A stretch of 64,000 bases of DNA, taken from a virus (Duplodnaviria; Caudoviricetes). Under the pieces are notes generated by a model. It ran no database searches and had not been told where the DNA came from. It saw only the letters and a program-made list of their open reading frames with translations. Numbering within the stretch: position 1 is the stretch's first letter; each line of letters starts with the position of its first letter. Shown in pieces: positions 2,982-30,900 of this stretch. The stretch spans positions 21,407-85,406 of IMG/VR virus record IMGVR_UViG_3300002220_000519; one strand, written 5' to 3'. The position numbers and the translations under genes are program-made.

Positions 2982-3187
2982 TTTGCGGGCTGCATGCTGG
3001 GTTCGGGGTATGCCAGCCTATCATGCTGTTTCTCCAGGCGGGCTATACCTTTGTCGCAGGCTGTCTTGACCTTGTTGGCGCTGTCACGGACTGCGACCGC
3101 TGATACCTTGCCCAACTGAACGACAGCCAGGCCGGTGTACATTAAGGCCACTTTTCCCAGTGTGGCCAATTTTTTGGTCTCGGACAT
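2978..3187 (-). CDS. Small amphipathic helical protein (family with 3237-3545 and 6960-7286)
   Basis: RBS AAGGGAG; hydrophobic stretch followed by ANKVKTA. Confidence 0.65.
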   Translation of the reverse strand: MSETKKLATLGKVALMYTGLAVVQLGKVSAVAVRDSANKVKTACDKGIARLEKQHDRLAYPEPSMQPAK

Positions 3188-3236
3188 GATGGTCTCCCTT
3201 ATTAATGATCTGTTGATTATTTAAGTTAACCTGGGG

Positions 3237-3545
3237 TTAGGCTACGGCCGGGACGGGCTCTGGTTTCTTGAACGGGATCACATTGCCGAGCCTGGTCTTC
3301 AGGTCGGTTGCGATCTCCTTGGCGTCGGCGGCTAACTTCTTGTTGTCCAGTTTCTTCTCCGCCCTGATGCAGGCCTGGTTTAACTGCTCGGCTCTCTTCG
3401 CGACCTTGTTGGCGCCGTACCTGATGCCGATGAGGCCGATGCGAGCTGTGGCGTTCCCCATCAATATGGGGCCGACGATCGCGACGCTGGCGGAAATCCG
3501 GGCTGCGTCACGGAAGTCTTTGCTGGCTCTTTTCAGTTCTAACAT
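3237..3545 (-). CDS. Small amphipathic helical protein
   Basis: Start reassigned to ATG 3545 (RBS AAGGAG); contains ANKVAKRA. Confidence 0.65.
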   Translation of the reverse strand: MLELKRASKDFRDAARISASVAIVGPILMGNATARIGLIGIRYGANKVAKRAEQLNQACIRAEKKLDNKKLAADAKEIATDLKTRLGNVIPFKKPEPVPAVA

Positions 3546-3694
3546 CTGAGTAATCTCCTTGTTTTGTTCAATTTTTGTGGGTTTTCTCTTGTTTTTGGTG
3601 AATTTTTGAGAGGAGTGGTTCACCCCGAACCACCCCTCTTCTGGTTGTTGCGTAGGCACTTTGTTGCGACTCCTACGCTAGTCCCGGTAGGACA

Positions 3695-4015
3695 CTACTT
3701 GCCCTTGGCCTCTTCGAGCGGAACTTCCTGGGAGCTGGTGCCCACGGCTACGCCATTGATCTTGACTGAGTAGCGGGTGACCACGAATTTCCCTTCCAGT
3801 TCGAAAGTGGCGTCCTTCAGGGCTCCGGAGTTGACTGCCTTCCGGATGTTGCCGGCGAGGTTCCGATCCTGGAAGCTGAGAGGGTGGTTGGTCTCGGTGT
3901 TGTCCTTGGCGACCGAGACGGCTCTGAAGAAGCGGGGCTGGCCATCGCTTTGGGCGATACCGCTCAGCGGATCGGGGCGCAGGGATACCTGGAAACTGGT
4001 TTTCTGACCGTCCAT
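3695..4015 (-). CDS. RNAP-A-linked small beta-rich protein (paralogue of 7774-8112)
   Basis: RBS AAGGAGG; DPLSGIAQSDGQPRFFRA motif; directly downstream of RNAP-A. Confidence 0.75.
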   Translation of the reverse strand: MDGQKTSFQVSLRPDPLSGIAQSDGQPRFFRAVSVAKDNTETNHPLSFQDRNLAGNIRKAVNSGALKDATFELEGKFVVTRYSVKINGVAVGTSSQEVPLEEAKGK

Positions 4016-4034
4016 CGTATTATCCTCCTTTCTT

Positions 4035-6476
4035 CTAGGATTCCTGATTCATATGATCAGGTTTGTTTTCCAAGACAAGAGAGCATTCGGCAGGGGGAAG
4101 GACTGCGGGCAAGGGAGCGCTTAGATTATGCGCTAAGTAGTCGGACATACGCTCTATGGCTCCTGTGCAGGCGTAATGCCGAACGAGGCCCGGCAGGTTG
4201 TCTAAGGCCGTTCCGCCATATACCCTGTTCGCGAGTTCTCCCGGTCCGAGTGGTGCGATCAGTGTGAACAGGAAGTCGCTCATCTTGGATGTAGCTATGA
4301 CCTGTCCAAATCTCACTGCCACGGACACTCGATCTGTTACCGGTAGAGCGCGTACTTTAGCCGCAGCTTCGTAGACTGCTGTGAAGCTTGGCTTGCTTGG
4401 TTGGCGGCCGGTTAGGGCGTCCCCAGCTGCGTATGCAACTGCGTCTCGGAATGCGTCCATGAGGCCCTTGGCGATATCTTCTGTTACTGTGCTAAAGGCC
4501 ATCACGGGTTCTGCCATGATCTTTTGTGCGAAGCCGGCTCTGTCGAATGGTTGCTGCTCGACTATCTCGAAAGCGGGCAAGTTTCCGAGTAGGTTGTGCA
4601 CCCATCCAGTTAAGCATAGATCCCATGTCTTATCCGTATGGGAGACGTGTGATTTCCAGGTTGCGTCTATGCTGCTGTAGTGCTTTACTCGGGCGTTCCA
4701 GTCGAGTGCTGCCCGGCCCATTTCCTTGTGTAACCATGGCATTGTGGTTGGGAACCCCAGCGTCTTTAAATACCCTCTGACGCTACGCATGATACTTCTT
4801 GCGTCGAAGTCCCCGTTCTTGGTTGCCTGTATCGACATGTGGTAGGATTGGGCAAGGATATCTTCTGCATATGACAAGTCTACCCCTGTGCACTGAACGA
4901 TACAGCGTATAAGAGATAGCATGTTGCAGATGGTGCCGACTGATGCGCCACTGGCTTGTGTCTTGTAGGCATCTTCGTAGGCTGTGGTTACTACCCTGCC
5001 AGTTCCTTTGGTCATATCGAGGTGAGGCTTAGGTGAGGTTTTGAGTTTGAAATTGTAGATGAATATAGTGTCACCGTCGAAATCCCCGTTATGGAACTCT
5101 TTCCAGTCTTCGGGGTTAACGTAGGCCGCGTGATCTGGGGCGGTATTTGTTCTGAATGTGTAGTGAACCTTGTACTGCCTGATCTCCGACTTCTGATTGA
5201 TAGGGTACCGCACTACTGTGACGGTCTGGGGGCGACCAAATGCATTCCAGGCTTTGCGGGATAAGATGATGTCACCTCTCCTGCATTTGGCAGACGGAAG
5301 AGCCAGCGCGGTGTGGCCCTTCTCTGTGTAGAATCCTTTTCTTAATTGATTGGCATACCAATGGGCTGCCTGCCAGGTTGCTCTCTGACAGGTTGGGTGT
5401 GTATCGGCTGTGGCCCCGGCTGCGAATAAGAATTCAGCCTGCATACGAAGCTCACGATTAAGTCCGTCTTCGGTAGGGATGTTACCTGGTAATAGGTCGA
5501 ATGCATCGTGCACTTTTAGGATCTTTTGCATTGCGTAGCTGTCACCGAGGATAGCATCTTGTAAGTCCGTAACTAGAGGCACGAGTTCGGCTTCAACTAC
5601 TTCTCTCCAGTTGTCGCACAGGCCAAGCAGTTGATAGGAGAGATTACATCCTATGCGATAGAACCAGTCTGAAACAGAAACCAGGCGGAATTCGGAAATC
5701 TTGAAGGTGTGCTTGCCTGGCTTGCGTGGTTCTCCCTTGTCGTTGCCGTTCCAGTATAACAGCTCTCCTGGTTCATCGGTGTTGGGGTCAAGGTAGAAGA
5801 CTACCTTGCTTGAGTGTGGCCATATACCTGAAAGCTTGATGGCCGTGGGTAAATGGATAACTTGTCCTTCCTCGTTGATCATCTTGTCGAGATTATAGGC
5901 TGCTACCATATTGGCCATAATCTTCTTGCTTACGCGCATACAGCCGTCGAGACTCGGGTGTTCTTCGTCTGTAACGACTACATCGAATGCATACTCTGAT
6001 TGTGGTAATATGGCTGGTTGGTGAGAAACTCCGGCGGCTTTGGCATTTGACCATGGCACTTTGACTTGATCGTTGATGCCTACCAATAGTTTCCAGTCCA
6101 AGGCCATTTGCTTGGGGGTTGGTAGGATAACAGCGTTTGGGCCAACCTGTTTGTGGATCTGGTCCATTACATCTGTTGGCGTGTCGTTGTTGATCGGGGC
6201 TGGAACTTCATACCACCAGGAAACTTCAGGTTCGCCATTTGTATAGTTGAGCAGGCCGTTTGCGCCTCTCGTGTACCCGCTGTTCTTTCTGAGTACTGTG
6301 ACTACCTTAATTGTCTCCGAATGTTTAATTACATAGTCACGGACCCAAGAATCCCGTACACCCTTGATTTTTGCACGCTTATTTGAGTCTGGGTCGTTGA
6401 GCAGCACCAGAGGATCTTCTTCCCAAACCAAGTAGTTTGGGCTATCCTGTGTAGCCATAGGGATCTTCAGTCCCAT
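4035..6476 (-). CDS. Single-subunit two-barrel RNA polymerase A (YonO/QDE-1-like), 813 aa
   Basis: Ordered motifs LDGC, SKVVF, NDKG, NLSYQLL, TVTVVRYP, HNGDFDGD (5070-5090), VGTICN, MSIQATK; RBS AAAGGAG. Confidence 0.85.
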   Translation of the reverse strand: MGLKIPMATQDSPNYLVWEEDPLVLLNDPDSNKRAKIKGVRDSWVRDYVIKHSETIKVVTVLRKNSGYTRGANGLLNYTNGEPEVSWWYEVPAPINNDTPTDVMDQIHKQVGPNAVILPTPKQMALDWKLLVGINDQVKVPWSNAKAAGVSHQPAILPQSEYAFDVVVTDEEHPSLDGCMRVSKKIMANMVAAYNLDKMINEEGQVIHLPTAIKLSGIWPHSSKVVFYLDPNTDEPGELLYWNGNDKGEPRKPGKHTFKISEFRLVSVSDWFYRIGCNLSYQLLGLCDNWREVVEAELVPLVTDLQDAILGDSYAMQKILKVHDAFDLLPGNIPTEDGLNRELRMQAEFLFAAGATADTHPTCQRATWQAAHWYANQLRKGFYTEKGHTALALPSAKCRRGDIILSRKAWNAFGRPQTVTVVRYPINQKSEIRQYKVHYTFRTNTAPDHAAYVNPEDWKEFHNGDFDGDTIFIYNFKLKTSPKPHLDMTKGTGRVVTTAYEDAYKTQASGASVGTICNMLSLIRCIVQCTGVDLSYAEDILAQSYHMSIQATKNGDFDARSIMRSVRGYLKTLGFPTTMPWLHKEMGRAALDWNARVKHYSSIDATWKSHVSHTDKTWDLCLTGWVHNLLGNLPAFEIVEQQPFDRAGFAQKIMAEPVMAFSTVTEDIAKGLMDAFRDAVAYAAGDALTGRQPSKPSFTAVYEAAAKVRALPVTDRVSVAVRFGQVIATSKMSDFLFTLIAPLGPGELANRVYGGTALDNLPGLVRHYACTGAIERMSDYLAHNLSAPLPAVLPPAECSLVLENKPDHMNQES

Positions 6477-6548
6477 CGTTCACGCTCCTTTCACTAGTTG
6501 AATTAACGGTAAGATTCCTGCCAAAACAGGGAGAGAATTTGGCGAGGG

Positions 6549-6830
6549 TTATCGATCACTCGCAAGCTTCTCTGCTGCGTTAAGCTCCCTGTCCGCAGAT
6601 ATCTTCATCTGTTCTGCGTTACGGCCTGCTTCCCTGATGATGGTGGAGAGCGCGAACTCTAGGTGCTTGTAGGTGCCGACCTTCTGCCTGAGCCCGGCTA
6701 TGGTTGTTTCCTTGACTGCGACCTCGTTGGTTAGCAGTTTGTTGTCCTGTTCTAAAGCTGTGGTCTGCTCGGTAAGTTCGGCTATCTTCTTTTCGAGTTC
6801 CCTAATTCTGCGAAATGGATTTAACTTCAT
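6549..6830 (-). CDS. Coiled-coil protein
   Basis: Heptad pattern IRELEKKIAELTEQTTALEQDNKLL; RBS AAGGAGG. Confidence 0.65.
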   Translation of the reverse strand: MKLNPFRRIRELEKKIAELTEQTTALEQDNKLLTNEVAVKETTIAGLRQKVGTYKHLEFALSTIIREAGRNAEQMKISADRELNAAEKLASDR

Positions 6831-6959
6831 GTTTGTTCACCTCCTTTGCATAGTACTGGCGCTCCTTGCCTTCTAAGAAGCGGTTAACGTTTTGGGCTAG
6901 TTTCTGCCCGAAGTGTCCTGCGATGAGTGCGACTGCCATGCCGAACTTCATGCCGTTGT

Positions 6960-7286
6960 CTACGACGGCTTTTCCGGAGACGGCGGCACGGGCGGCTTGG
7001 AGTTGGAGTTCTGTTTGGGAGAGCACGGTTCCTCCTTTCCCTTGAGTTCGTCCATGGCCTGGTCTAAGGCCTGGTCTGCGGTTAAGTTTCCTTCTGCTTT
7101 GAGTTCGAGTGTGCGGTTGACCACTTGGTAGGTTAACTTGCCGGCCTCTATCTCGTTGTCTATCTTCTCCTTAGCACGCTTAGCTATTTTGGTTGCGCTC
7201 TTGGCTGCTTCGTCTCCGAGCCTTCCGAACACAGCGCCTATTGTGATGATGCCGGCTGCGATTTTCCGTTTGGTAGTGTCTTCCAT
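6960..7286 (-). CDS. Small amphipathic helical protein
   Basis: RBS AAGGAGG; KIAAGIITIGAVFG...TKIAKRA. Confidence 0.65.
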   Translation of the reverse strand: MEDTTKRKIAAGIITIGAVFGRLGDEAAKSATKIAKRAKEKIDNEIEAGKLTYQVVNRTLELKAEGNLTADQALDQAMDELKGKEEPCSPKQNSNSKPPVPPSPEKPS

Positions 7287-7728
7287 GACTGATCACCTCC
7301 TTTTAAATGGTTGTGTGGCCTTGTTCGATGCAGGGAGTTTGCGTCTTTCATTCCTTTCTCCTTATATTAATGGTTTAGTTGATTGCGAACGGCGCCAGCT
7401 TATTCACCCATGGCTTTACGCCTTTAAGTGGGAGTGGTGGGGCTGGCTACCAGGACGGTCAGTCACCACGACCGACACGGGCCTGGGCTGTTCAATCTCA
7501 CACCTGTGGAACCAGACCCTATATATGAATGTAAGTGTTTGCACCGCCCTCAATTAAGAGGACGGCGGAAAGGTTGCCAGGCCTAGCTTCGCTGTTGGGA
7601 AAAGGACAGCGCAAGCGTAGTTTTTACAACTACCCGGGTTGCAGGCAGTTAACCACGCGGGGAAGGCAACAGATTACTACCACCACAAGGGATATATGTT
7701 ATTGACACACATATCCTATATGAATTTT

Positions 7729-7765
7729 AAAAGACCGAAGGGAGCGTTAACTCCCCTCAGTCTTT
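7729..7765 (-). terminator. Intrinsic terminator after the RNAP-B partner gene
   Basis: AAAGACTGAGGGGAG-TTAACG-CTCCCTTCGGTCTTTT on the minus strand. Confidence 0.7.
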
Positions 7766-7773
7766 ATGAATGA

Positions 7774-8112
7774 TTATTCAGGCACGCAGGTGGCAGTCCC
7801 CCGACCCAGCACCAAATCCTGGCCGATATCGAAGACCTCGCGGACCTCGATGGCTTTCCTGGTGATCGGGATGGTGACGGTCTCACCCTTGGCCGACGCA
7901 GCGATCAGCTTGTCCCTGAGCTGGCCACCGATGGACTTGGCAGCGAAGCTGATGTGCAACCGGCGACCGTCCGGGAGCGTGGCCTGGAACAGGTAGGGCC
8001 GACCGTCTTTGAAGTTGATGCCGCTCATGGGATCGAAGGACAGAACGGCGTTTACGGACGCTTCGGCCAGCACCTGGGCGCCAGCCTGGAACTTCTTGGT
8101 GAAGTTGCTCAT
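7774..8112 (-). CDS. RNAP-B-linked small beta-rich protein (paralogue of 3695-4015)
   Basis: Start reassigned to ATG 8112 (RBS AGGAG); DPMSGINFKDGRPYLFQA motif. Confidence 0.75.
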   Translation of the reverse strand: MSNFTKKFQAGAQVLAEASVNAVLSFDPMSGINFKDGRPYLFQATLPDGRRLHISFAAKSIGGQLRDKLIAASAKGETVTIPITRKAIEVREVFDIGQDLVLGRGTATCVPE

Positions 8113-8351
8113 GGTAAGGTCTCCTAATAGAAGTTTAAAAGTTGACATACGCTCTGAGTGAGCTATGCCAAAACAAGTGAGTATTCGGCTAGGCTAGAGA
8201 CTTCGGCTAGGATAGACTGCAGGCTGGGGGGCCGGCAATCCTCTCCCTACGCATACGAGTTTAAATAGCTAGTGTATGACTACCTGGTTATAACCTAGTT
8301 GCGTTTAGTCTTCTAAATATGAGCGCCTGTCACGTTTGTTTTGTGTTGTTG

Positions 8352-10634
8352 TTACTTTTTGAATATGTTGTTAGCCAGAATGAACTGGTCAGGATAGGCC
8401 TCGACCAACTTCTCTGGGGTTAGTGTGTTGCAGGCTAAGCGTGCTAATCCCACGTGCCGCCAATCCATGAATGACCACATCTTTAATGTGTTACTCTTGG
8501 CCAGCTTGTAGCCCCACCTAAAGACGAGTTGCAAGTATACTTCGGGAGTAATGGTTACTTGTGTTAAGCCTGTAGCAACGCAGATTAGTCTATGGGTTTT
8601 GTGGTCTCTGGTCCACTTGCCAGGTACCCAGAATCTCCCGCCCTTACGTGCTGCTGCCTGTAGCCTGCGGAACTTGGAGAATGCCTTAGTGTTGTCGTGG
8701 TTCTCGAGTAGGTTCTGAGCAGCCTGACCAAAGATAGTATTGAAGAACTCGAATACTAGCTCTGCATCCTGATTGGGGGCCTTCAGGTACACACTATAGA
8801 AGCTCTTCGCCAGTATTGAGCGGGCCTGGTCTGTAATGCTTGGTATAGTTGGTAGGGCGGCAATCTTCTTCAACATATTGGTGCGCACGAAGTTGTCCCA
8901 CTCTTTACCAAGGTTAGCCATAGTCTTAGTCTCTGTTACCCTGGTGTTCCACGCCTCAAGGATGTTGTTCTTGGATACCTGCCACTTCTTTTGTCTCCAG
9001 AAGCAGCCTCTGATGTTGAAGTTCTTGCGCGCGTAGTCCCTAATGTCTCTAACGACATCATCACCACCTATGTCCATATGCTTGATGGCCTGGATGGACA
9101 TATTATAGGCGACCCCTGCGTTATTGATTAGCCCCTTAAGGTCAGCACGGTCAAAGGCCGTTTCTAACCCTATAGCTAGTTCCTGAGCTAAACACACACG
9201 CCCGATCTCCTTATATGCAGCCCGTGTTTCTAAGAACTCCTCATAAGGAGTGAGTGCCTCTTTGGCACCCTTCGCTATGGTTGGCATGGTCATCGTACCA
9301 AAATCCTTGGGCTTTAACGGCAGGTTAATGACAAAGATCAGATCCTTGTCAAAGTCCCCGTTATGATTGGTGCGCCATGAGTCAGGGTTAATACTTACTG
9401 TGTGCCAGCTAACCACCTTGTACTCAACTATTTCCTTCGGGCCATTGAGCGGGTAACGGACAACCCATACAGTGGCCGGGTTCCCCATTTTACGCTGGAC
9501 ATCAAGTGGCAGCCCTATTTCGTTGGGCTTTATAACGCGTGACGGTAGGGCTATCTCCATGAGTCCTACGTTCTTCGGCAGTGGAACCCCGCGAGATAGA
9601 TCTCTGGTTCTGATGCCCAGCAGTGTGACTGTGAAGTTGGCAAGTTCAGGTGAGAGCAACGGATTGCCGCCATTTTCGATGGCAAAGCGGGACATGGTCA
9701 GCCGATCCGCCCAGCGCGGGTTGACGAATGTATCGACTTCTGGATCGTAGTTTTCGTCGAACATAAACGTCTCACCGAGATCTATCAAGTCAAGTATGTC
9801 TGGTTGGATGTGTTCCATGTAATACTCCTGAATCTCCTCGGTCGTCCTGCCCGCTGGTACACCTGTTGACAGATAGTTTGCAACTGCTGTAATTTTGGTC
9901 ATCCAGGGCGCACCAAAGCGCTCGATAAGTTGTGTTCCATTTACTAGCAGCTGTGTTACCATGTGAGACAACCAGATACGATTAGTAGAGTAGTCATCAC
10001 CGAGTGCTACTAGCCTGAGGTCTCTGATGTCAAAGGTGATTGTACCCTGACGTTTGACACCCTTGTCGTTGCCCTTGAATGTAATTATGCTGCCCTCTAA
10101 GCCACGCTTGAAGACTATCTTTGTGCAGTTGGGCCAGATACCAGCAAACCCAGCAGCGTCTATGTTGCCTATTCTGTTCTGTGACACACCATACGCCTCC
10201 AAGATCTTGTCGAACAGGCCCTTTGGGATTGTGGTACAGCCGTCCTCGGCCCCTTCTTGCACGGTGTCTACTATCTCGGCGTCGAACTTGATTGGTACCT
10301 GGGTTGCGCGGCCAGGTTGTTGACTGACAGCTAAGGCTTTGCTACTGTCAATTGGGGCCTCTAGCGTTGGGTTCTTGGTAACCCAGACCAGCCCGGCCTT
10401 CATATCCGTCTTGCTCGTCCTCAGGAATCGTTCGCCTGGTTCCAAGACGCTCTCAGCTACATCCAGCGACACCTCAGTATGGTATTTGCTAATCTCTATA
10501 CCAACAGGTGTGTGGAAGAGCTCTTGTCCAGTTATACGTTCCCTAGTCACATGGTTAGCAACCAACCAGGCTGCCACGTGGCTGTTGACCGCGCCGAAGG
10601 GCTCAGTCTTGCGAGAGATATTAGTGTAGTTCAT
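8352..10634 (-). CDS. Single-subunit two-barrel RNA polymerase B (YonO/QDE-1-like), about 760 aa, DFDKD variant
   Basis: Motifs EDGC, TKIVF, NDKG, WLSHMVTQLL, TVWVVRYP, HNGDFDKD (9342-9362), MSIQAIK; probable start ATG 10634 (RBS AAAGGA); ORF is open to 10709. Confidence 0.8.
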   Translation of the reverse strand: MNYTNISRKTEPFGAVNSHVAAWLVANHVTRERITGQELFHTPVGIEISKYHTEVSLDVAESVLEPGERFLRTSKTDMKAGLVWVTKNPTLEAPIDSSKALAVSQQPGRATQVPIKFDAEIVDTVQEGAEDGCTTIPKGLFDKILEAYGVSQNRIGNIDAAGFAGIWPNCTKIVFKRGLEGSIITFKGNDKGVKRQGTITFDIRDLRLVALGDDYSTNRIWLSHMVTQLLVNGTQLIERFGAPWMTKITAVANYLSTGVPAGRTTEEIQEYYMEHIQPDILDLIDLGETFMFDENYDPEVDTFVNPRWADRLTMSRFAIENGGNPLLSPELANFTVTLLGIRTRDLSRGVPLPKNVGLMEIALPSRVIKPNEIGLPLDVQRKMGNPATVWVVRYPLNGPKEIVEYKVVSWHTVSINPDSWRTNHNGDFDKDLIFVINLPLKPKDFGTMTMPTIAKGAKEALTPYEEFLETRAAYKEIGRVCLAQELAIGLETAFDRADLKGLINNAGVAYNMSIQAIKHMDIGGDDVVRDIRDYARKNFNIRGCFWRQKKWQVSKNNILEAWNTRVTETKTMANLGKEWDNFVRTNMLKKIAALPTIPSITDQARSILAKSFYSVYLKAPNQDAELVFEFFNTIFGQAAQNLLENHDNTKAFSKFRRLQAAARKGGRFWVPGKWTRDHKTHRLICVATGLTQVTITPEVYLQLVFRWGYKLAKSNTLKMWSFMDWRHVGLARLACNTLTPEKLVEAYPDQFILANNIFKK

Positions 10635-10684
10635 TGGGTTCCTTTCGATTTGTTTGAAATTGTTTGTTTGAAGTTTAGATCTCT

Positions 10685-11068
10685 TTAGATCTCTTCTGCC
10701 GGATTCCAACCGTCTATGTTGAAATCCGGGGTGGTCATTGGTGCATCCAGTGTAGCCTCAGCCGTGCCGAGATAGCAGCACAATACCGAGTGCTGTATTT
10801 CGAACGCGGCCGGCCTATTGATGATGAGCCAGAAGGGCTCATACACACCAGCGGCTACCTGTCTATCGGCTGGTCTTAGGAACAGTCCATTCTGTCCATT
10901 GAGCAGTCGGCCGCCCTTCACGGCAAAGACGTTGTTAAAGGTCAGGTCTATTACGGCGACCTGTTTACCGATTGGTGTAGGCAGCCTTGTAATGGCCACC
11001 TCGGTCAACACTAGCCCCACTGGGAGACTAGTGATGGCCTTGCTTAGTCTGTGGATTTCTTTAGGCAT
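10685..11068 (-). CDS. spoVG: SpoVG-like nucleic-acid-binding protein
   Basis: LTEVAITRL...AVIDLTFNNVFAVKGGRLLNGQNGLFL...EIQHSVLCCY follows the SpoVG pattern, including GQNGLF; RBS AAGGAG. Confidence 0.7.
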   Translation of the reverse strand: MPKEIHRLSKAITSLPVGLVLTEVAITRLPTPIGKQVAVIDLTFNNVFAVKGGRLLNGQNGLFLRPADRQVAAGVYEPFWLIINRPAAFEIQHSVLCCYLGTAEATLDAPMTTPDFNIDGWNPAEEI

Positions 11069-11372
11069 GACCTTCTCCTTCAAAGATGTTTAATTGTTGT
11101 AATTTTTGTGGCTCCTGTCTGCTTCCTCCTGGTTTCCAGCCGGGTCGTGTTCTTCTTAGCACCATGGCCTTCTCCCAACTTGTGAGACCCCTAATGGAGA
11201 GCAGTTGGTAGTTCAGCCACGTTCCGTTCAACCACATCCCGTTCATCACTATGACCTTGTTTGTGACGTGGTTGACACTGACTTTGAAACTATAAGCGTC
11301 CCCCACCCTCTTGACTGCCCAGAACGACTCTATAGCCTCAAGTAGCAGGTGCCGGTATTCTATGACTGCCAT
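11061..11372 (-). CDS. Hypothetical protein
   Basis: Start reassigned to ATG 11372 (RBS GAGGAGG). Confidence 0.55.
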   Translation of the reverse strand: MAVIEYRHLLLEAIESFWAVKRVGDAYSFKVSVNHVTNKVIVMNGMWLNGTWLNYQLLSIRGLTSWEKAMVLRRTRPGWKPGGSRQEPQKLQQLNIFEGEGHA

Positions 11373-11566
11373 GATCTTATCCTCCTCATAAGTTTCTTCC
11401 AGTAGTATGGTATAATCACCACAATTAATGATAGTCCCACTATGGCGACAATTGATGCTAAAATGAGGTACCAACCTAGCCTACCAGCTGCGTTCGAATC
11501 GGTTGCGGCCAGAAAAGCACCGACCAAGAACGTGCAGAAAGCTCCGAGGGCCATGTTCTTATCCAT
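11360..11566 (-). CDS. Two-helix membrane protein
   Basis: Hydrophobic segments, basic C-terminal tail, RBS AGGAG. Confidence 0.55.
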   Translation of the reverse strand: MDKNMALGAFCTFLVGAFLAATDSNAAGRLGWYLILASIVAIVGLSLIVVIIPYYWKKLMRRIRSWQS

Positions 11567-11831
11567 TTATCTCTCCTTCTCTTTCTTTTAGGGCCAAGTC
11601 GACGACCCTGTTAATTACTGGGTTGAATATGCATGTACTGTTACTGTTGCAGCTCAGTTGATGATAGCACCCAGCACAGACCTTTTCTGCGTGGGTCTTG
11701 GCATCCTCAACCCACCCTATTCTTATCATGTTGTCCACTATTCTGGTTTGTGTTTGCAGCCACCTCACTCTCCTCATGGTAGCGGCTGTCACTCTCCTGG
11801 CCTCCCAGGACCTTGTTTCGTTCTTTGCCAT
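11559..11831 (-). CDS. Hypothetical protein with Cys cluster (CAGC...CNSNSTC)
   Basis: RBS GGAGG; overlaps the next gene in an operon-like way. Confidence 0.55.
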   Translation of the reverse strand: MAKNETRSWEARRVTAATMRRVRWLQTQTRIVDNMIRIGWVEDAKTHAEKVCAGCYHQLSCNSNSTCIFNPVINRVVDLALKEREGEING

Positions 11832-11944
11832 TATAATACCCTCCTAATTAATTTGTTGTTGTGGCACATGACGAGCACCACAATGTTACCGATGATTGGA
11901 AGTTGGGTCATTGCCAGTATTGCCTTTTTCATGGTCAGTCCTTT

Positions 11945-12160
11945 CTATTTATTGGTTGTTGTAAGATGAGCGTAAGCCTCTGCCGCGAAGTCCCTGTTGT
12001 TATCTTCTTCTTTCTCCTGCAACTCGTAAATTATGTCAAGGAAGTCCTGCGCCATCCCGACGATCTTTGGCTCCGGGCAGTGGGCTACTATGTGTTGCAA
12101 ACCCATGATGCTCCAGCTCTCTATTGAGAACTCTAGAGTTTCCATCCATGTTGCCCTCAT
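11945..12160 (-). CDS. Hypothetical acidic protein
   Basis: RBS AAAGGAG. Confidence 0.55.
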   Translation of the reverse strand: MRATWMETLEFSIESWSIMGLQHIVAHCPEPKIVGMAQDFLDIIYELQEKEEDNNRDFAAEAYAHLTTTNK

Positions 12161-12172
12161 TGTGGCTCCTTT

Positions 12173-12505
12173 CTAATAAGCCTCGTGATCAATAACGATA
12201 TCGAGGCGGTTTACCTGAACTCCCGCGGTGGGAATCCAAGTGTTAATGTAGGCTACGAGGCTGTTGGCTTCCTTTAGGACCTTGTTACAGTCCTGAATCC
12301 CCTTGTTCAGCCTCTCTAGCTGGGAGGTGGACTCTGTGCCCGCTCTCACTGCAATGTAGTCCCTTCGGGTCTTCTTCACAGTGACTAGTAGTACGGTTGC
12401 CAGTGCAAGTATCCGATCCTTGGTGCCTTGGGGCATGGGTGTGTTTGTTTCCTTCCAGTCCCAGACAAAGGACTGTAGGAGGTTGAGTAGTAACCTGTGT
12501 TCCAT
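12173..12505 (-). CDS. Hypothetical helical protein (first gene of the left arm)
   Basis: Probable start ATG 12505 (RBS AAAGGGG). Confidence 0.55.
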   Translation of the reverse strand: MEHRLLLNLLQSFVWDWKETNTPMPQGTKDRILALATVLLVTVKKTRRDYIAVRAGTESTSQLERLNKGIQDCNKVLKEANSLVAYINTWIPTAGVQVNRLDIVIDHEAY

Positions 12506-12574: not shown

Positions 12575-13380
12575 TTATGAACAGGCTATACAGCTCATGC
12601 ATCGACTAGGTTATGCGATCCTGTCGAAGTTAATGGCTGGCTGTATTAAGCACGCCACATGCTTACTGTCATAGTCTACTAGGGAGACCAGCTTCTTATG
12701 ACAGTGTCGTTGCCCAGCGGTACTAGCAGCCATGTGTCAGTTAAGATAGTATGGGATATGGCCTACAGATTTAGTGGTCTATGGTTGTGTCATAGCCACT
12801 CGTGATAAGGCATATAGATTACAAGGCTATATACCTGAGCTACACCTGATTATAGCATTACCGTCTATGATCGTTGGGCGTTTATCTCCCTCTTTTAGGG
12901 GTAACATTCGCACCTACTAGACCATGATTTATAGTGAGAGAATAAGGCTCACTATTGTTCATCAGCCTTTGAGGTTGCTATGCTCTATGACTGACGACGG
13001 AGTTATTATTGCTAGACATTATTAGGGAGGTTGTTACTACCTTATGACCTCGAGATCCCTTGGTCCTCTCCTCCTAAGATACCCTAGAATGTCACTCATG
13101 TTGAGACTACATCTTTCAAGGACATGTCTTCCTTGATTGATACCCATATGGGCCTGGCATACTTAAATGCTCAGCTGCATTTTAGGGACACCCGGGGGGC
13201 TCGAAACCCTAGGTTAATTCCCTTATTATTCTACTATGGTCTCAGCAAATCATTTCGTTTTTCCGGAAAATCCCTATAGAATTTTCCAAAAATCCCGGCA
13301 GCAGTCCCCAAAAAACCCCCAAAGTAATTCCAAGATTTCACCATTCCCTATCAGCTTACTTAGGTAGTCATATACTGTAG
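12575..13380. other. Long non-coding divergence region; possible genome end, packaging site or origin
   Basis: No ORF of 60 aa or more on either strand; CCCGGGGGG at about 13191-13199 followed by phased A/T/C runs at 13256-13325. Confidence 0.45.
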
Positions 13381-13385
13381 GCCTA

Positions 13386-13414
13386 TTGACTTTTAAGGTA
13401 AAATGTGGTATAAT
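13386..13414 (+). promoter_or_regulatory. Consensus sigma70/sigmaA promoter with extended -10
   Basis: TTGACT-17 bp-TATAAT preceded by TGG. Confidence 0.85.
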
Positions 13415-13439
13415 GTATATATAAATGAAAGGAAATAAA

Positions 13440-13580
13440 ATGACAGACCAAATGAAAACTAAGGTGTTTGATTGTCCTGTTCATGGGTGGGAAATACAGG
13501 CCTTCTGTTTTCGTAGTGAGCTTCCTGAAAATGCAGATCGGTGGCACAAAGCAACAATAACACTCGATGAGGAAAAATAA
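13440..13580 (+). CDS. 46-aa hypothetical protein
   Basis: RBS AAAGGA, first ORF after the promoter. Confidence 0.45.
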   Translation: MTDQMKTKVFDCPVHGWEIQAFCFRSELPENADRWHKATITLDEEK

Positions 13581-13643
13581 CTATGTTAAGTTCACTCCGG
13601 CGATTGCATAGACTTTAAATTAAAAGTATAAAGGGGGAGGGTA

Positions 13644-13820
13644 ATGATAACAGTTAAGAACCTAAGAGAGAGACTTGTAGGCCTTAATGATGATGACAGG
13701 GTGTATGCTTATGAGGGAGAGGCTACTGGGATAGTTATTGTAAGGAGAGACGAGGATGGGAAATATAACGAATTGTGCTTTATAGAAGCAGCTAATACTG
13801 TTAGAGATGAAAACAAATAA
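13644..13820 (+). CDS. 58-aa hypothetical protein
   Basis: RBS GGGAGG; MITVKNLRERLVGLNDDDRV... Confidence 0.55.
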   Translation: MITVKNLRERLVGLNDDDRVYAYEGEATGIVIVRRDEDGKYNELCFIEAANTVRDENK

Positions 13821-13835
13821 CTAAAAGGAGGGGAA

Positions 13836-14264
13836 ATGAGTAAACTAGGAACACTACTAAAGTACTTCCAAGCTACGAAGAAGGTCAATAATACTACAAC
13901 AACATACTGGAGTCCTGGTGGGGCTGACGCGCACGTATATATTGATGGTGAGGAGCAGCGTACTTGTACAGGTATAACGTACAGTATTGCGAATAAGGCT
14001 GGTCAGCTTGCGGCCAAAGGCTCACTCTTATATTCCCACCCTGATTCCCCTGGTACTTCTCGAATGAAGGGTATGCATAACATACGGCTCCAACTAAACA
14101 ACGAATGTGGAGACGCTGCACTGGTAATTGACTTCAATAAGGTGTCATTTACACTTATTGATAGTGGAATTGCAATTGATGATATAGCTATGGAAGAACT
14201 TCATTTTTTTGAAGCTAAGGGTGTTGTCTATACTAAGTCTGTTACATATAAATATTTGGATTAA
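13836..14264 (+). CDS. Displaced tail-tube-like paralogue 1
   Basis: GGADAHVYID..GITYSI..NNECG..IDDIAMEELHFFEAKGV aligns with tube 58244-58960 (SGADIILVIH..GISFSI..MNEYG..VDDITSETQMTWICRGI). Confidence 0.65.
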   Translation: MSKLGTLLKYFQATKKVNNTTTTYWSPGGADAHVYIDGEEQRTCTGITYSIANKAGQLAAKGSLLYSHPDSPGTSRMKGMHNIRLQLNNECGDAALVIDFNKVSFTLIDSGIAIDDIAMEELHFFEAKGVVYTKSVTYKYLD

Positions 14265-14486
14265 CGAGGACACATGAAAATTAAATACATGCCGGCCATC
14301 CTGCTAGTTATTACCCAGGTGAGCAGATCTGTTGGGGGCGCTCTAATAGAAGTAAGTATGGTGTGAAGCTAGTAGATACACTTAAGCAGATCAAGCAAGA
14401 GCAGCGAGCATCTATAAGTTGGAGAAAAAAGAGGGGTTACGGTGACTCTCATTTCAAATATGGCTACGTGAAGGTCGAGGTTTAAT

Positions 14487-14696
14487 ATGAAAAAGAACAT
14501 GACAATCTTTAAACTAGATGCTATAATCCAGGTTAAAGATAAGGAAGTGGCGGACAAGCTTATTAACCAAATTAGTGAGCTGCTTGAAGATGAAAGTAGA
14601 ACTGATATCGGTAGCAGCGTGGTTAACCTTCATTGGGTAGCAGATCAAGAGAAAGCCGCCAAGGAACTTAAAGCAGCATTAAAATTGTGGAGCTAA
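14487..14696 (+). CDS. Hypothetical protein
   Basis: RBS GAGG; 69-aa ORF. Confidence 0.55.
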   Translation: MKKNMTIFKLDAIIQVKDKEVADKLINQISELLEDESRTDIGSSVVNLHWVADQEKAAKELKAALKLWS

Positions 14697-14697
14697 T

Positions 14698-14901
14698 ATG
14701 ACTTGGTACCCTAAAGAAGATTTCCTATGGGATAAGGGCCTAGAAGAACAACTGCAGATAACGATAGACTCCTGTAGACTTCATTACACAAATGAAGAGA
14801 TCTATAATTACCTAGACTTATGTACGGAGCTTGGAGTTATCGCTGGCCATCATAAAACTTCGGTTAAACTACCAAGGACAGGAAGAAACGTAACTTTATA
14901 G
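14698..14901 (+). CDS. Hypothetical protein
   Basis: RBS GGAG; abuts the previous gene. Confidence 0.5.
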   Translation: MTWYPKEDFLWDKGLEEQLQITIDSCRLHYTNEEIYNYLDLCTELGVIAGHHKTSVKLPRTGRNVTL

Positions 14902-14915
14902 AAGGCGTTGCTAGG

Positions 14916-15092
14916 ATGAGTTATACAGATACCATAATGAAGATTACTGATACTGAGTCGATTGTTATTAGAGCCGAACCTGACTACGTTACAATCTTCG
15001 TAAATGATGGAGAAAACGATCAATACGCCACGGTTGTTCTAACAAAGGAACAACTGAAGGACTTGATTAGGAACCTTAATACTTTATTGTAA
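14916..15092 (+). CDS. 58-aa hypothetical protein
   Basis: Open frame filling the gap between neighbours (my translation). Confidence 0.45.
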   Translation: MSYTDTIMKITDTESIVIRAEPDYVTIFVNDGENDQYATVVLTKEQLKDLIRNLNTLL

Positions 15093-17631: not shown

Positions 17632-17711
<80 letters not shown>

Positions 17712-17784
17712 CGGGGTGTAGCACAGTTGGTAGCGCGTCTGGTTTGGGACCAGAAGGCCGTCCGTTCAAATCGGACCACCCCGA
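17712..17784 (+). tRNA. trnP: tRNA-Pro (TGG), no encoded CCA
   Basis: Acceptor CGGGGTG/CACCCCG, anticodon arm TCTGG-TTTGGGA-CCAGA, GTTCAAAT. Confidence 0.92.
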
Positions 17785-17795
17785 CATTTGAAAAG

Positions 17796-17883
17796 GCACG
17801 TTTCCGTTTTTACGGCGTGCAAGTGGCTCACGCCCGGTTCACCCGGGTATATCCCTTCACTGGTATATTACAATGAGCCACTT
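17796..17883 (+). ncRNA. Candidate structured RNA: hairpin plus three-way junction
   Basis: GCACG..CCGT/ACGG..CGTGC hairpin, then a 10-bp helix AAGTGGCTCA/TGAGCCACTT enclosing two stem-loops. Confidence 0.5.
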
Positions 17884-17915
17884 AGACTTACTTAAAATAT
17901 TATATATATATATAA

Positions 17916-18080
17916 ATGACAAGTGACCAAACTACATACTGCCCGGCCTGCGAGTGTCTACGGATTTCAGTTGTTGAGTCTGACATGCTTGGGTTTCAGC
18001 ACCATGTCTGTATTATCTGTCATGGTAAGCTTAACCCACAGTTAGTATCTCAAATCATCGATATCCCACATACCTGCTAA
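17916..18080 (+). CDS. 54-aa Zn-finger-like peptide
   Basis: CPAC...CIIC (my translation). Confidence 0.45.
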   Translation: MTSDQTTYCPACECLRISVVESDMLGFQHHVCIICHGKLNPQLVSQIIDIPHTC

Positions 18081-18251
18081 ATGATGACATGCTTACTTTG
18101 TCAACACTACTTTTATGATAGTATGAACCAAAAGCCATACTGTCGTAAAGTTGGTTGCGTTCTAAGTTTTAATTTTAATATAGACAATATATGTGAGCCT
18201 GATTGGTGCCCCCTAAAGGATAAGGATGAGCGACCAGAACACCAAAGATAA
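18081..18251 (+). CDS. 56-aa Cys-rich peptide
   Basis: CLLC..C..C..CEPDWCPL; follows the previous stop directly. Confidence 0.5.
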   Translation: MMTCLLCQHYFYDSMNQKPYCRKVGCVLSFNFNIDNICEPDWCPLKDKDERPEHQR

Positions 18252-19221
18252 TAAAGATACAAACATAGTCCCACCAACTGAACATACACAGCGGGTTATT
18301 CCTGCAATAGTTCTTGATCAGTTTGGTGGGCAGCGTGTTATTAATAATGGTAAGCTGGTTAAGAAATTAAATGCTGACCAGTTAGATGGAAAAGACGCTG
18401 ATGACTTCGCCACTAAAGATCACTCACACGAAATTCTCTCAGGAAAAGATGGTAAAGATGGAACAAAAGGAGAGAAAGGTGACAAGGGTGATAAGGGCGA
18501 GAAGGGCGATCGCGGGCCTATAGGCCCACAAGGCGCTAAGGGTGACAAAGGCGATAAAGGTGATCGTGGTGAGCACGGCCCAAAAGGCACTGATGGTAAA
18601 GATGGCACTGATGGTAAAGATGGTGCTACTGGTAAGACTGGTGTTCAGGGACCTAGGGGTAGTCAAGGACCACGCGGAGAAAAGGGAGACGGAGGGCCTG
18701 CTGGACAAGATGGTACAAACGGTAGGACAGGCCGCGAAGGTAAACCTGGTGTAAAAGGTGACCGTGGAGCCCGCGGTATAAGTATTGTTTGGCGCGGTGA
18801 GTGGGACCCAGATATTAAGTACCGTGTTAACGACGCTGTTGCACATAATGGCTCCTCATATATTTGTATTAAAGCCAATGAAGGCTTTGCACCACCAAAC
18901 GCAGAATACTGGGATCTACTAGCACAAAAGGGTAGATCTGGAAGTATGGGTATTGGCGCCGCCGGCCCACAAGGAACATCCGGTGCTGCTGGTAGAGACG
19001 GCGTTGATGGTACACCTGGATTGATTTGGCAGAGCGACTGGGACAACACAACAGGGTATGTAGTGGGTGACGCAGTAAGCTACAACGGTTCTTCGTATAT
19101 TTGCATTTATAGTCATACTAATAAACTTCCCACAAATGAAACATTCTGGGATACACTTGCCGAGGCCGGGACTGATGGTAGCGCTGATTCTAAAGCTTTA
19201 CTTTACGCAATGTTATTTTAG
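18226..19221 (+). CDS. Collagen-like fibre protein with two CBM5/12-like repeats
   Basis: About 37 consecutive Gly-X-Y triplets; WxxxxxYxVxDAVxxNGSSYICI twice; N-terminal LNADQLDG motif. Confidence 0.85.
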   Translation: MSDQNTKDNKDTNIVPPTEHTQRVIPAIVLDQFGGQRVINNGKLVKKLNADQLDGKDADDFATKDHSHEILSGKDGKDGTKGEKGDKGDKGEKGDRGPIGPQGAKGDKGDKGDRGEHGPKGTDGKDGTDGKDGATGKTGVQGPRGSQGPRGEKGDGGPAGQDGTNGRTGREGKPGVKGDRGARGISIVWRGEWDPDIKYRVNDAVAHNGSSYICIKANEGFAPPNAEYWDLLAQKGRSGSMGIGAAGPQGTSGAAGRDGVDGTPGLIWQSDWDNTTGYVVGDAVSYNGSSYICIYSHTNKLPTNETFWDTLAEAGTDGSADSKALLYAMLF

Positions 19222-19227
19222 GTAGTA

Positions 19228-19539
19228 ATGATAGCATCAACAATGATAACTAGTAACGATACAAACCTACTGGTGGTTCCTGTAGGTAAAGTATACGCTA
19301 TAGTGTCTTCTCACTTTTGTAATACGTCCCTTACTACTGAAAGTATTACTGTATATGTTGTGCCATCTGGTGGAAGTCCAAGTAGTACTAACATGATTCT
19401 TAAAAACCTGTCCATTATCAAAGAAGATACATACATTCCAGACTTTAGCAGGATGGTTCTGTCCGCCGGTGATAAAATAGTAGCAAGAGGTATTATGGGA
19501 AATATGGTTGCTTCTACCATCAGTTATCTGGAGGTATAA
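19228..19539 (+). CDS. Small putative virion structural protein
   Basis: FCNTS..ITVYVVPSGGS...MVLSAGDKIVA, a pattern I recognise from small phage virion proteins. Confidence 0.6.
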   Translation: MIASTMITSNDTNLLVVPVGKVYAIVSSHFCNTSLTTESITVYVVPSGGSPSSTNMILKNLSIIKEDTYIPDFSRMVLSAGDKIVARGIMGNMVASTISYLEV

Positions 19540-19541
19540 AA

Positions 19542-19787
19542 ATGCCATTATTTGTTAAAGAAGCGCTACTGGTAGCGCCAAAAGTCTTTGCAGTTCGATA
19601 CGAACAGGTTGATGACACTACTTCATATATTGGTGAAGGAGAGGTAGGAACCTTAGATAGCGCAACTACTTGGCGTATTAAAAAGATTGTCACAGACGTA
19701 GATGGAAATATTACAATAACTTGGGCCGGCGGTACAGCGTACTTTAACAAAGAATGGGATGAACGCCTAAACTATACATATAGTTAA
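19542..19787 (+). CDS. Conserved small phage protein
   Basis: YIGEG....SATTWRIKKI...TWAGG...FNKEWDER..Y pattern. Confidence 0.6.
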   Translation: MPLFVKEALLVAPKVFAVRYEQVDDTTSYIGEGEVGTLDSATTWRIKKIVTDVDGNITITWAGGTAYFNKEWDERLNYTYS

Positions 19788-19807
19788 CAACTTACAGTAG
19801 CTTAAAT

Positions 19808-20011
19808 ATGCTAGGAATAGTTTGCGCCATAGAGGACCAATGGAACTATACACTTACTGATAGGGATATTGATGTCTTACAGATGTATAGTGAATCCGCT
19901 GGAATTTTAGGAGCAGACTTCCTGGCAGTAATTGATAGGACCTCAGTCGGTATATTTCATAATGGTGACAACGATAGGATACCGTTTAGTGTGTATAGCT
20001 CACAAACATAA
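19808..20011 (+). CDS. Hypothetical protein
   Basis: 67-aa ORF in the operon. Confidence 0.45.
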   Translation: MLGIVCAIEDQWNYTLTDRDIDVLQMYSESAGILGADFLAVIDRTSVGIFHNGDNDRIPFSVYSSQT

Positions 20012-20026
20012 TATTGGAAATTTATA

Positions 20027-21615
20027 ATGGCTGGTACGGTAACAACAGACTTATTGTTTTTTACGGGGGCTACCACCGGCTCTTCGTCTTGTGATAATCT
20101 TACTGATTGGACTGGTACCCCAGCGCCCTCTCTAGATATAGCGCAGTTTGTTCAGGGGGCTGGTGCATTGCTAAGCTACAACGCTGCCTCTACCACATCG
20201 AGAACTTTTATATTTACGTCTGTAGCAACCAGCGTTCAGGGTAAGGCCGTATATTTTTGGTTTTCTGTCGGCAAGGTTAGCTTTCTTAATACAAGGGACG
20301 CCGGAGGACTTAGGATTACTCTTGAGAGCACGGTTGGTAATAATGCTACGTGGTACGTTGCTGGAAGCGATACACTACCACATAACGGGTTTATTTGCCA
20401 CGCGGTTGATACCTCAGTTACTCCAGACGCTACTACCGGTACTGTAAATTTAGCCTCTATCACAAAAGTTACTGTCACTGCCACTGGGGCGTTTCCTGGA
20501 AAAGCTAATTGCTGGGTAGATGCAATAAGAACTGGCACTAAAGTTATTATTGAGGCAGGTACGGCTGGAGCTCCCGCAACATTTGACGATATTATCGAGG
20601 CAGAAAAAACAACAGCAAATAGATGGGGAGTGGTAGAGGATGTTGGTGGTCTCTGCTCATCCAAGGTAAGATAGCTATTGGAAAAAGTACTCAAACTGCA
20701 ACAACGTACTTCTCTGATACAAACAAAGTACTTATCTTTAAAAACGCTAAGTTCTCGTCTTCGTTCTACTCCATCGGTATTGTAGGCGCATCTTCTTATG
20801 CAACGGTTGCGTACTTCGGAACAACCTCTGGTGATAGTGGGCTGTCTGGCTGTGTTTTTAGGCTAGCTAGCTTAACTCAAACCCCAATCTTTACATTTAC
20901 TGCTACAGACACATACATAACAAACTTTGGCTTATATGGCTGTTCATTTCTTGGGGCGGGAGCCATTTCTTTTCCCGAGTATAATACTAACAAGAAAGTA
21001 CTTAATAGTACTTTTGAGGCCTGCGCGGAAATAGTACCAAGTACCTGCACCGTAACTAACTGCAACTTCGTATCTGCAGCTGCTCATGCTATGCAAATGA
21101 GCTCTACATCTCACCAGGTTACATCCTCTAACTTTATTGGATGCTCTCGTGGTGTTCATCTTGATACGGCTGGCACATATACATTTAACGCACTTAAGTT
21201 TACTAGCAATACTTACGATATAACCAACTCTACGGCAAGCGCTCTTATCGTTAATGCTACTAATTTGGCTAACCCATCATCTGTTGAAAATACTGGCGGC
21301 GGCTCTGTAACAATTAATAACGCCGTTACTCTTGAGGTAAACGGTGTTAAGACTGGCTCAGAGCCGACAAACTACGTACGATGTCGTATAGAGAAGGTTA
21401 GCGATGGGGCCGCCCTGATGAACGAAGAAGCCCAAACTAGTTATGGCTCTGCGGGGTATTATAAAGCAACTGAGAGTTATAACTACGCTGGTGACCTTGA
21501 TGTAAGAATTATAGCTAGGTATAAAGGTTATTTACCGTTTACAACTACTGGCACCATCACTAGCGCTGGTTTAACAGTTACCGCCGTATGGATAGCGGAC
21601 CCAAATTATACTTAA
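20027..21615 (+). pseudogene. Beta-helix-like virion protein split by a 1-nt frameshift at about 20651 (pseudogene or assembly error)
   Basis: Frame 1 ends WGVVEDVGG; frame 2 continues LLIQGKIAIG; GGT GGT CT CTG CTC lacks one base. Confidence 0.65.
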
Positions 21616-21627
21616 TAGGAGAATCTT

Positions 21628-22047
21628 ATGAAAAACTGGAAGAAGAAAGAGCAAGTCAAGCAGGTTGTTCCTATTGAGTTGCCAAAAGAAGAACCAAAAA
21701 CAATAATTCCTCTAGCCACTGTTTATACAGAGGCAGAATTAGCTTCATTTCACGCAGAGATAGCTAAGCGTGGTTTTCTTGATAGCAAGAAACTTTTCTA
21801 CAAAGCCATTCAAAAGAACCCAGAAGTCTTAACTCCAGAAGAGGTAAGAGCACTTATATTCCGTATGGGCTTTCTAAGCGACACTGAAAGATACAAATTC
21901 AGAAATATATTGGTTTTGGAAAATCTTACTACTGAAGAAGAGAGTAGATTTAGAAAACTATATAATAAACAGCTATTCGAGAAATATTTCCCGCATAAGG
22001 ACAAAGTCGAAGAGCACTATAAAATTAATTTCCTGGCAGGAAGATAA
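21628..22047 (+). CDS. Hypothetical helical protein
   Basis: RBS AGGAG; 139 aa. Confidence 0.6.
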   Translation: MKNWKKKEQVKQVVPIELPKEEPKTIIPLATVYTEAELASFHAEIAKRGFLDSKKLFYKAIQKNPEVLTPEEVRALIFRMGFLSDTERYKFRNILVLENLTTEEESRFRKLYNKQLFEKYFPHKDKVEEHYKINFLAGR

Positions 22048-22074
22048 ACAAACTAACATCGGAGGATACCCCAA

Positions 22075-23742: not shown

Positions 23743-23752
23743 GGAATAATCT

Positions 23753-25798: not shown

Positions 25799-25868
25799 GA
25801 CTGGTGGTGTAACGGCAGCGCGCGTCTCTGATAAGGACGTAGAGAAAGTTCGATTCTTTCCCGGTCCA
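25798..25868 (+). tRNA. trnI: tRNA-Ile (GAT), no encoded CCA
   Basis: Acceptor GGACTGG/CCGGTCC, loop CTGATAA, T-arm GAAAG-TTCGATT-CTTTC. Confidence 0.85.
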
Positions 25869-25876
25869 CACTAAAT

Positions 25877-26326: not shown

Positions 26327-26337
26327 GGGTATATATA

Positions 26338-28164: not shown

Positions 28165-28168
28165 TACA

Positions 28169-30652: not shown

Positions 30653-30655
30653 GCC

Positions 30656-30684
30656 TTGACTTTAGTACAGATTTATGGTATAAT
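30656..30684 (+). promoter_or_regulatory. Consensus sigma70 promoter with extended -10
   Basis: TTGACT-17 bp-TATAAT with TGG. Confidence 0.8.
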
Positions 30685-30713
30685 TGGGTAACTTAATGAG
30701 GAGGAGGAGGAAC

Positions 30714-30893: not shown

Positions 30894-30900
30894 GTCTACT

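Follow-up and report, generated by a model that had tools for sequence, protein, structure and literature searches.

This study concerns a 64,000-nucleotide stretch of phage DNA (hereafter, the window), which is the right-hand 64 kb of the 85.4-kb IMG/VR record IMGVR_UViG_3300002220_000519; contig-wide counts below refer to the whole ~85 kb. The phage, which is uncultured, is contractile-tailed: among its genes are those for portal, sheath, and capsid proteins and for an intein-containing terminase. A 211-kb contig with an identical polymerase protein is also on record. A leftward arm of ~33 kb, composed mostly of small genes, meets a rightward arm at ~12.6-13.6 kb of the window. The leftward arm carries two genes, A and B, whose products are predicted to be single-chain two-barrel RNA polymerases (RNAPs). 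In the direction of transcription, the order is a SpoVG-like gene, polymerase B, the small gene B, a hairpin, ~440 nt of non-coding DNA, three small open reading frames (ORFs), polymerase A, and the small gene A (Table 1). At least one of the three small ORFs between the two cassettes is coiled-coil-like. The two polymerase genes are 1.9 kb apart, neither is located in the structural module, and neither carries a fusion to a virion protein. Both ORFs had been noted in a preliminary description of this DNA together with a series of shared motifs; we confirmed both frames on the minus strand and found all the quoted motifs. The likely start of B is ATG 10634, which is preceded by the ribosome-binding site (RBS) AAAGGAA, and a public copy of the protein, P0004, begins at the same site.

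Table 1 Features at the two polymerase cassettes. Positions are those of the window.
Feature	Position	Strand	Remarks
Small partner gene A, 106 aa	3695..4015	minus	starts 19 nt after the stop of A; strong RBS
Polymerase A, predicted single-chain two-barrel RNA polymerase, 813 aa, slower-evolving paralogue	4035..6476	minus	
NGDFDGD codons, predicted metal-binding triad of A	5070..5090	minus	translation; invariant D465, F466, D467, D469
GNDKG codons, first barrel of A	5733..5747	minus	translation and alignment
16-bp hairpin and U-rich run, terminator-like end of the B cassette	7730..7765	minus	fold of 7330-7773
Small partner gene B, 112 aa	7774..8112	minus	RBS AGGAG before ATG 8112; public model starts at this Met
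Polymerase B, predicted single-chain two-barrel RNA polymerase, 760 aa, faster-evolving paralogue	8352..10634	minus	
NGDFDKD codons, predicted metal-binding triad of B (Lys replaces the usual Gly)	9342..9362	minus	translation
GNDKG codons, first barrel of B	10059..10073	minus	translation and alignment
SpoVG-like gene, 127 aa	10685..11068	minus	directly upstream of B; RBS GAAGGAG before ATG 11068

The relationship between A and B was examined at the sequence level. BLASTP aligned the two proteins with an E value of 6e-37 and 27% identity over 471 columns, and a comparison of the A-clade and B-clade profiles with hhalign gave a probability of 100 and an E value of 6e-49 over 500 columns (A 116-657, B 69-616). 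The preliminary description had aligned the two proteins along their length. This held for the catalytic core (~500 columns), whereas the N- and C-terminal parts were unlike: no likeness was detectable in the first ~115 (A) and ~70 (B) residues or in the last ~155 (A) and ~145 (B) residues. The only local repeats were RBS and start words and the catalytic codons common to A and B. Judged from these alignments, A and B are paralogues.

Subsequently, AlphaFold2 models of A and B were built on an alignment of the seven members of the family. The model of A had a predicted local distance difference test score (pLDDT) of 72 and a predicted template modelling score (pTM) of 0.69. When the PDB was searched with this model using Foldseek, the matches were RDR2 (E 6e-14), QDE-1 (4e-12), and the Thermus phage gp62/gp64 (~1e-8), followed at lower ranks by gp96, crAss gp66, and the largest subunits of cellular and poxvirus enzymes. 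The model of B retrieved the same list of single-chain two-barrel polymerases. In these predicted structures, the matches to the single-chain polymerases ran nearly end to end (~500-600 residues for A and ~380-420 for B), and the cellular largest subunits were matched over the second barrel and the helices after it. The matches in BFVD were uncharacterized phage proteins, some of them labelled RNA-dependent RNA polymerase (RdRP), and P23-45 gp64.

In both models, a first barrel with the basic motif GN(D)KG leads through a helical connector to a second barrel with RYP and NGDFD(G/K)D, and the DxDxD barrel is followed by a long helix and helical elements at the place of the cellular bridge helix and trigger loop. 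D-F-D-x-D and RYP were invariant in all seven family members; in the alignment, GN(D/F)KG, with an Arg or Lys 3-4 residues on, was kept in every member having the region. The NGDFDGD of A is nearly identical to the NADFDGD of the bacterial beta-prime subunit, and the GNDKG motif of A and B recalls the GNKG motif of the bacterial beta subunit. Taken together, the models and the retained catalytic residues bear out the preliminary assignment: by predicted fold, A and B are both full-length single-chain two-barrel RNA polymerases.

The family to which A and B belong is rare. Six family proteins emerged from an exhaustive HMMER search of 1.84 billion representatives; the seventh member is the A-type gene of a 15-kb metagenome contig (L002), which is cut by the contig end. 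A profile search of 5.8 billion proteins gave no further family members. Viral-contig scans with A, B, and the A-clade alignment gave a single-copy phage of 223 kb from IMG/VR (L003) as the sole relative, and two metagenome scans for further relatives found nothing. Neither the polymerases nor the small partners had a match in Pfam, PHROG, NCBIfam, or PADLOC, and the polymerases gave no tblastn match in 50,697 phage records and no RNAP match among PDB sequences at E up to 10 (phmmer, hmmsearch). The label YonO-like, used in the preliminary description, found no support as a family name, because comparison of the family profile with SPbeta YonO gave an hhalign probability of 0.1 and the tblastn search of phage records was negative. 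The nearest folds were those of the Thermus phage gp64/gp62 and RDR2/QDE-1. Membership in a P23-45 gp64-like family was likewise rejected by sequence on the PDB search, though the fold likeness is strong. The family of A and B falls within the clade that PMC10770324 defined for single-chain enzymes of phages and plasmids together with eukaryotic RdRPs, as a family separate from that of YonO, and this polymerase family itself is new.

In viral and metagenome searches, the paired arrangement recurred on one distant contig, L002. There the B type spans 5667-7844 and the A type 12786-15074, and both order and strand agree with those of the window. In the tree, the A clade and the B clade split with a support of 100/100. 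Between the window and L002, the A types were 42% identical and the B types 24%, and the corresponding path lengths in the tree were 1.47 (A) and 3.78 (B) changes per site; thus, over this pair of genomes, the evolutionary rate of B is ~2.6 times that of A. Because the pair is kept in the window and L002 across this deep divergence, the duplication is old and both copies were retained. A PcfJ-like gene of 587 aa lies between the B and A types of L002 (8438-10201). As a separate observation, the polymerase genes lie in an island of raised G+C content (0.50-0.56 versus 0.40-0.44 in the flanks), which is common to the window (3000-12500), L002 (3000-15074), and L003 (9000-14000), while the polymerase proteins are merely 30-42% identical. 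Either the module is mobile and foreign in origin or the composition is maintained.

Each polymerase gene is followed by a small gene, and the products of the two small genes are homologous (E 2e-6), in line with the preliminary description, which had assigned a cognate small gene to each polymerase. Accordingly, the duplicated unit is a cassette of polymerase and partner. A homologue of small B was found at L002:10293-10709 (tblastn 4e-7; alignment), and no homologues of the small partners were found beyond these. Two further genes were considered as small partners and rejected as not homologous: the 106-aa gene downstream of the polymerase of the single-copy phage and the 85-aa gene after the B type of L002. 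The public models of the small partners were of low confidence (pLDDT 0.44 and 0.49). Their nearest structural neighbours, at template modelling (TM) scores of 0.45-0.52, were OB-type domains: for B, the RecG wedge, TRAM, and DUF3465; for A, the OB domain of DNA ligase. As a lead, the small partners are possibly small nucleic-acid-binding barrels serving as template-binding cofactors. Coliphage N4 gp2 is such a cofactor, binding the template for RNAP II.

The gene directly upstream of B encodes a SpoVG-like protein. It matched the Pfam SpoVG model (PF04026) over 77 of 82 model positions with an E value of 2.4e-5 and 24.8 bits, under the cut-off of 29.6, and the NCBIfam SpoVG model with an E value of 3.3e-7. 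SpoVG proteins are site-specific nucleic-acid binders. In L002, a gene listed as SpoVG is also located directly upstream of the B type, and its product matched the window copy with a pairwise E value of 1e-8. The retention of this position in two distant genomes suggests that the SpoVG-like protein is a B-specific factor.

The preliminary description had named no characterized phage with two such full-length paralogues. This claim of uniqueness does not stand, since P23-45 has two paralogous single-chain two-barrel RNAPs that arose by an ancient duplication (PMC10770324). In the Thermus phages P23-45, P74-26, and P32, the non-virion gp64/gp62 is accompanied by its paralogue gp96, a virion RNAP fused to the tape measure (PDB 8f72, 8f5m, 8h2m; PMC10770324). 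These enzymes have no detectable sequence likeness to A and B. In contrast to them, A and B are both free-standing, similar in size, close together outside the structural module, and each equipped with a small partner, and the window phage is a large myovirus with its own sigma factor. The phiKZ-like phages have two multisubunit RNAPs (PMC7824862). Together with the AR9 jumbo phages (PMC7824862, PMC7598289), they resemble the window phage in being large and in carrying RNAPs of the two-barrel superfamily in two paralogous versions; however, their RNAPs consist of several subunits of the cellular-type clade and the phages have no sigma factors, whereas the window phage has single chains and a sigma factor.

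YonO of SPbeta (PMC5467207), like A and B, is a phage single-chain two-barrel RNAP of ~800-840 aa, and it is DNA-dependent. Downstream of it lies yonN, a gene for a small DNA-binding protein, which may be compared with the small partner genes here. It differs from A and B in the profile comparison given above, in the absence of a BLAST match, and in being present as a single copy in SPbeta. The crAss-like phi14:2 gp66 (PDB 6vr4; bioRxiv 10.1101/2020.03.07.982082) belongs to the same two-barrel clade and has a non-Gly catalytic loop, DFDID, comparable to DFDKD of B and DFDQD of P0007, the A-type polymerase of the single-copy phage; unlike A and B, it is a virion protein of 2,180 aa, and the fold match to it was weak (E 8e-4). 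QDE-1 and RDR2 (PDB 2j7n, 7w82, 7rqs) were the best Foldseek matches of A and B (E 6e-14 to 1e-8; TM by query 0.35-0.47) and share the barrel order and the DxDxD loop with them, but the identity is only 10-14%, and these enzymes are eukaryotic, RNA-dependent (dual in the case of QDE-1), and provided with large extra N-terminal domains. The two-polymerase strategy of phages is thus already established by P23-45 and the phiKZ-like phages, and the present finding extends it rather than overturning it. What is new here, besides the family, is two free-standing paralogues of similar size side by side, the duplicated small partner, the conserved SpoVG-like neighbour, and the co-occurrence with a sigma factor.

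We also examined the non-coding DNA of the locus. The gene-free stretch of 444 nt at 7330-7773 (minus strand), which includes the terminator-like hairpin of Table 1, folds with -160 kcal/mol (z -6.3 versus shuffles) and contains several further long hairpins. It had no Rfam family match and may represent either a non-coding RNA or clustered hairpin signals. The 239-nt spacer between B and small B folds modestly (z -2.6). It contains a tandem direct repeat of 18 nt at 8179-8214, in which CCTAGCCGAA occurs twice on the minus strand; this repeat may be an operator or a promoter.

The head of the rightward arm (13386-13414, plus strand) bears TTGACT-17-TATAAT, a near-consensus sigma-70 promoter of the extended -10 type (TG extension), and GTGGTATAAT recurs as a word at five places on the contig. 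Furthermore, a sigma-70 family gene for a 235-aa protein is present at G000:C1:17137-17844 (minus strand), that is, 3.6-4.3 kb before the window start and 7.6 kb beyond A, in the same leftward arm as the polymerases. The protein contains Sigma70_r2 and r4, passes the TIGR02937 cut-off, and matches phrog_351. On account of the sigma-70 promoter, the recurring GTGGTATAAT, and the phage sigma-70 gene, the phage probably makes use of the host polymerase as well, to transcribe its earliest genes and/or by way of its own sigma factor. A 2021 survey of 224 jumbo phages described a sigma-factor group without RNAP and a multisubunit-RNAP group without a sigma factor (PMC7824862).

Several other features of the record and of its relatives were recorded. 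In the 85-kb record, no other DxDxD protein of at least 300 aa was polymerase-like; the ORF at 40329-42911 (860 aa), considered as a third copy, had no match to the polymerase family profile. A further copy elsewhere is possible, since the record covers only part of the genome. Upstream of the B cassette, a gene at 11559-11831 (minus strand) encodes a Cys-rich protein of 90 aa, and a 41%-identical homologue is encoded at L003 5276-5536, 4.5 kb upstream of the polymerase of the single-copy phage (tblastn 1.6e-12). By this sequence match, the gene is part of a neighbourhood common to the two phages. In L003, an RNase H gene (9099-9629) precedes the A-type polymerase gene at a distance of ~0.4 kb, and a single 91-aa gene intervenes. 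The large terminase gene of the window (37177-40329, plus strand) is split by an intein that bears a LAGLIDADG homing endonuclease domain, and six tRNA genes (Asp, Pro, Ile, Gly, and two for Ser) are scattered over 17632-32835 (plus strand) of the rightward arm. Before the window, G000:C1:9461-12279 (minus strand) holds an ABC-transporter permease-like gene and a gene for a substrate-binding protein fused to an OmpA domain, which may be auxiliary metabolic genes.

The function of A and B can be approached from the characterized enzymes of the clade. YonO transcribes the late genes of SPbeta (PMC5467207), crAss gp66 transcribes early genes (bioRxiv 10.1101/2020.03.07.982082), and the P23-45 paralogues serve different promoters, AT-rich ones for gp96 and GC-rich ones for gp64 (PMC10770324). 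Because the tested phage members of the clade transcribe DNA and both copies here keep all catalytic positions, we favor two transcription enzymes. In the reading that we prefer, which we hold with slightly better than even confidence, A and B would both be catalytically competent and would divide the transcription of the phage DNA between them. A cassette of a polymerase and a small partner gene was duplicated long ago, and the two enzymes would then have been sub-functionalized, each reading a distinct set of phage genes, defined by promoter or by time. The host polymerase would serve the earliest genes and/or act through the phage sigma factor, and the small partners and the SpoVG-like protein would most likely be template-loading or specificity factors.

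Some of the results weigh against this division of DNA transcription between A and B. The model of B is of middling confidence (pLDDT 63, pTM 0.56). The best Foldseek matches, RDR2 and QDE-1, are RNA-dependent enzymes, so the template is not readable from the fold. The 223-kb phage, which is estimated to be 94% complete, has a single polymerase of this family, an A-type copy; its only SpoVG-like match lies ~100 kb from the polymerase, and no match to the small partners was obtained anywhere in that genome. Since such a relative does without them, the family can dispense with the second enzyme and the partners. Moreover, the completeness of the IMG/VR record is 55% (CheckV), which means that about half of the genome or less is covered. 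Finally, the 85-kb contig was searched by exact k-mer counts and by 9-mers with one mismatch, scored for enrichment in front of 55 gene starts; neither a recurrent promoter motif specific to the phage nor two classes of motif emerged. In this lineage the core enzyme is the A type; its companions, namely B, the partners, and the SpoVG-like neighbour of B, were either added as a group or lost as one.

As the main alternative we consider a virion/non-virion pair, in which one paralogue, B being the likelier, would be packaged and injected for the first genes and the other made after infection for the later classes. We regard this as unlikely but still credible. Coliphage N4 is a precedent both for virion and non-virion polymerases and for the two-polymerase theme. 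Further precedents are P23-45 (PMC10770324) and the phiKZ-like phages (PMC7824862). The faster evolution of B is consistent with a packaged enzyme, as is its DFDKD loop, given that the crAss-like virion RNAP has DFDID where the earlier-studied RNAPs have Gly (bioRxiv 10.1101/2020.03.07.982082). However, the non-Gly loop is not specific to B, as the A-type P0007 shows. Both genes belong to the small-gene arm, with no virion-protein fusion, and a long helical connector is present in both models at the place where P23-45 gp96 has no clamp. In addition, the strong sigma-70 promoter and the phage sigma factor suggest that the host enzyme can start the programme.

A second alternative, which we judge improbable, is that one paralogue is not a transcriptase but an RNA-templated enzyme like QDE-1/RDR2 or a maker of replication primers, the other being responsible for transcription. 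The top Foldseek ranks of RDR2 and QDE-1 for both models would agree with this, as would the weak OB-fold-like neighbours of the small partners, such folds being found in single-strand binders; QDE-1 has RNA- and DNA-dependent activity (PMC9508822). On the other hand, the phage members of the clade tested so far are all DNA-dependent transcriptases (PMC5467207, PMC10770324), VIA puts the DNA-dependent gp64 first among the matches of A, and no replication genes adjoin either copy in the neighbourhood of the locus. A more specific form, in which the locus would be a self-contained two-enzyme system and the paralogues would differ in chemistry, one a DNA-dependent transcriptase and the other an RNA-templated or primer-making enzyme of the QDE-1/RDR type, each loaded by its partner onto a single-stranded template, appears still less probable to us; if true, a two-barrel enzyme of a phage would for the first time be seen in an RdRP-like or primase role.

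It is very doubtful that A and B act as a heterodimer or that one regulates the other. Although QDE-1 is a dimer in crystals (PDB 2J7N) and the pair is kept in two distant genomes, the 94%-complete relative manages with the A type, and the arrangement in two cassettes, each with a partner gene of its own and divided by a terminator-like hairpin, points to separate expression. Least credible is that one of the duplicates, most likely B, is decaying or has lost catalysis, as its long branches in the tree and the Gly-to-Lys change in its catalytic loop might suggest: the 760-aa frame is intact, the three Asp, RYP, GN(D/F)KG, and ~25 further invariant positions are kept in the three B-type sequences down to 24% identity, and the DFDID loop is active in the crAss-like enzyme (bioRxiv 10.1101/2020.03.07.982082).

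The single-chain two-barrel polymerases are minimal relatives of cellular RNA polymerase, of which few members are characterized, namely YonO, crAss gp66, P23-45 gp64 and gp96, and QDE-1/RDR. The large phage described here encodes both a sigma factor and polymerases, a combination unreported in the survey of jumbo phages cited above. With its candidate accessory factors, this compact natural pair would be convenient for studying the acquisition of promoter specificity and the division of labour between duplicated polymerases.

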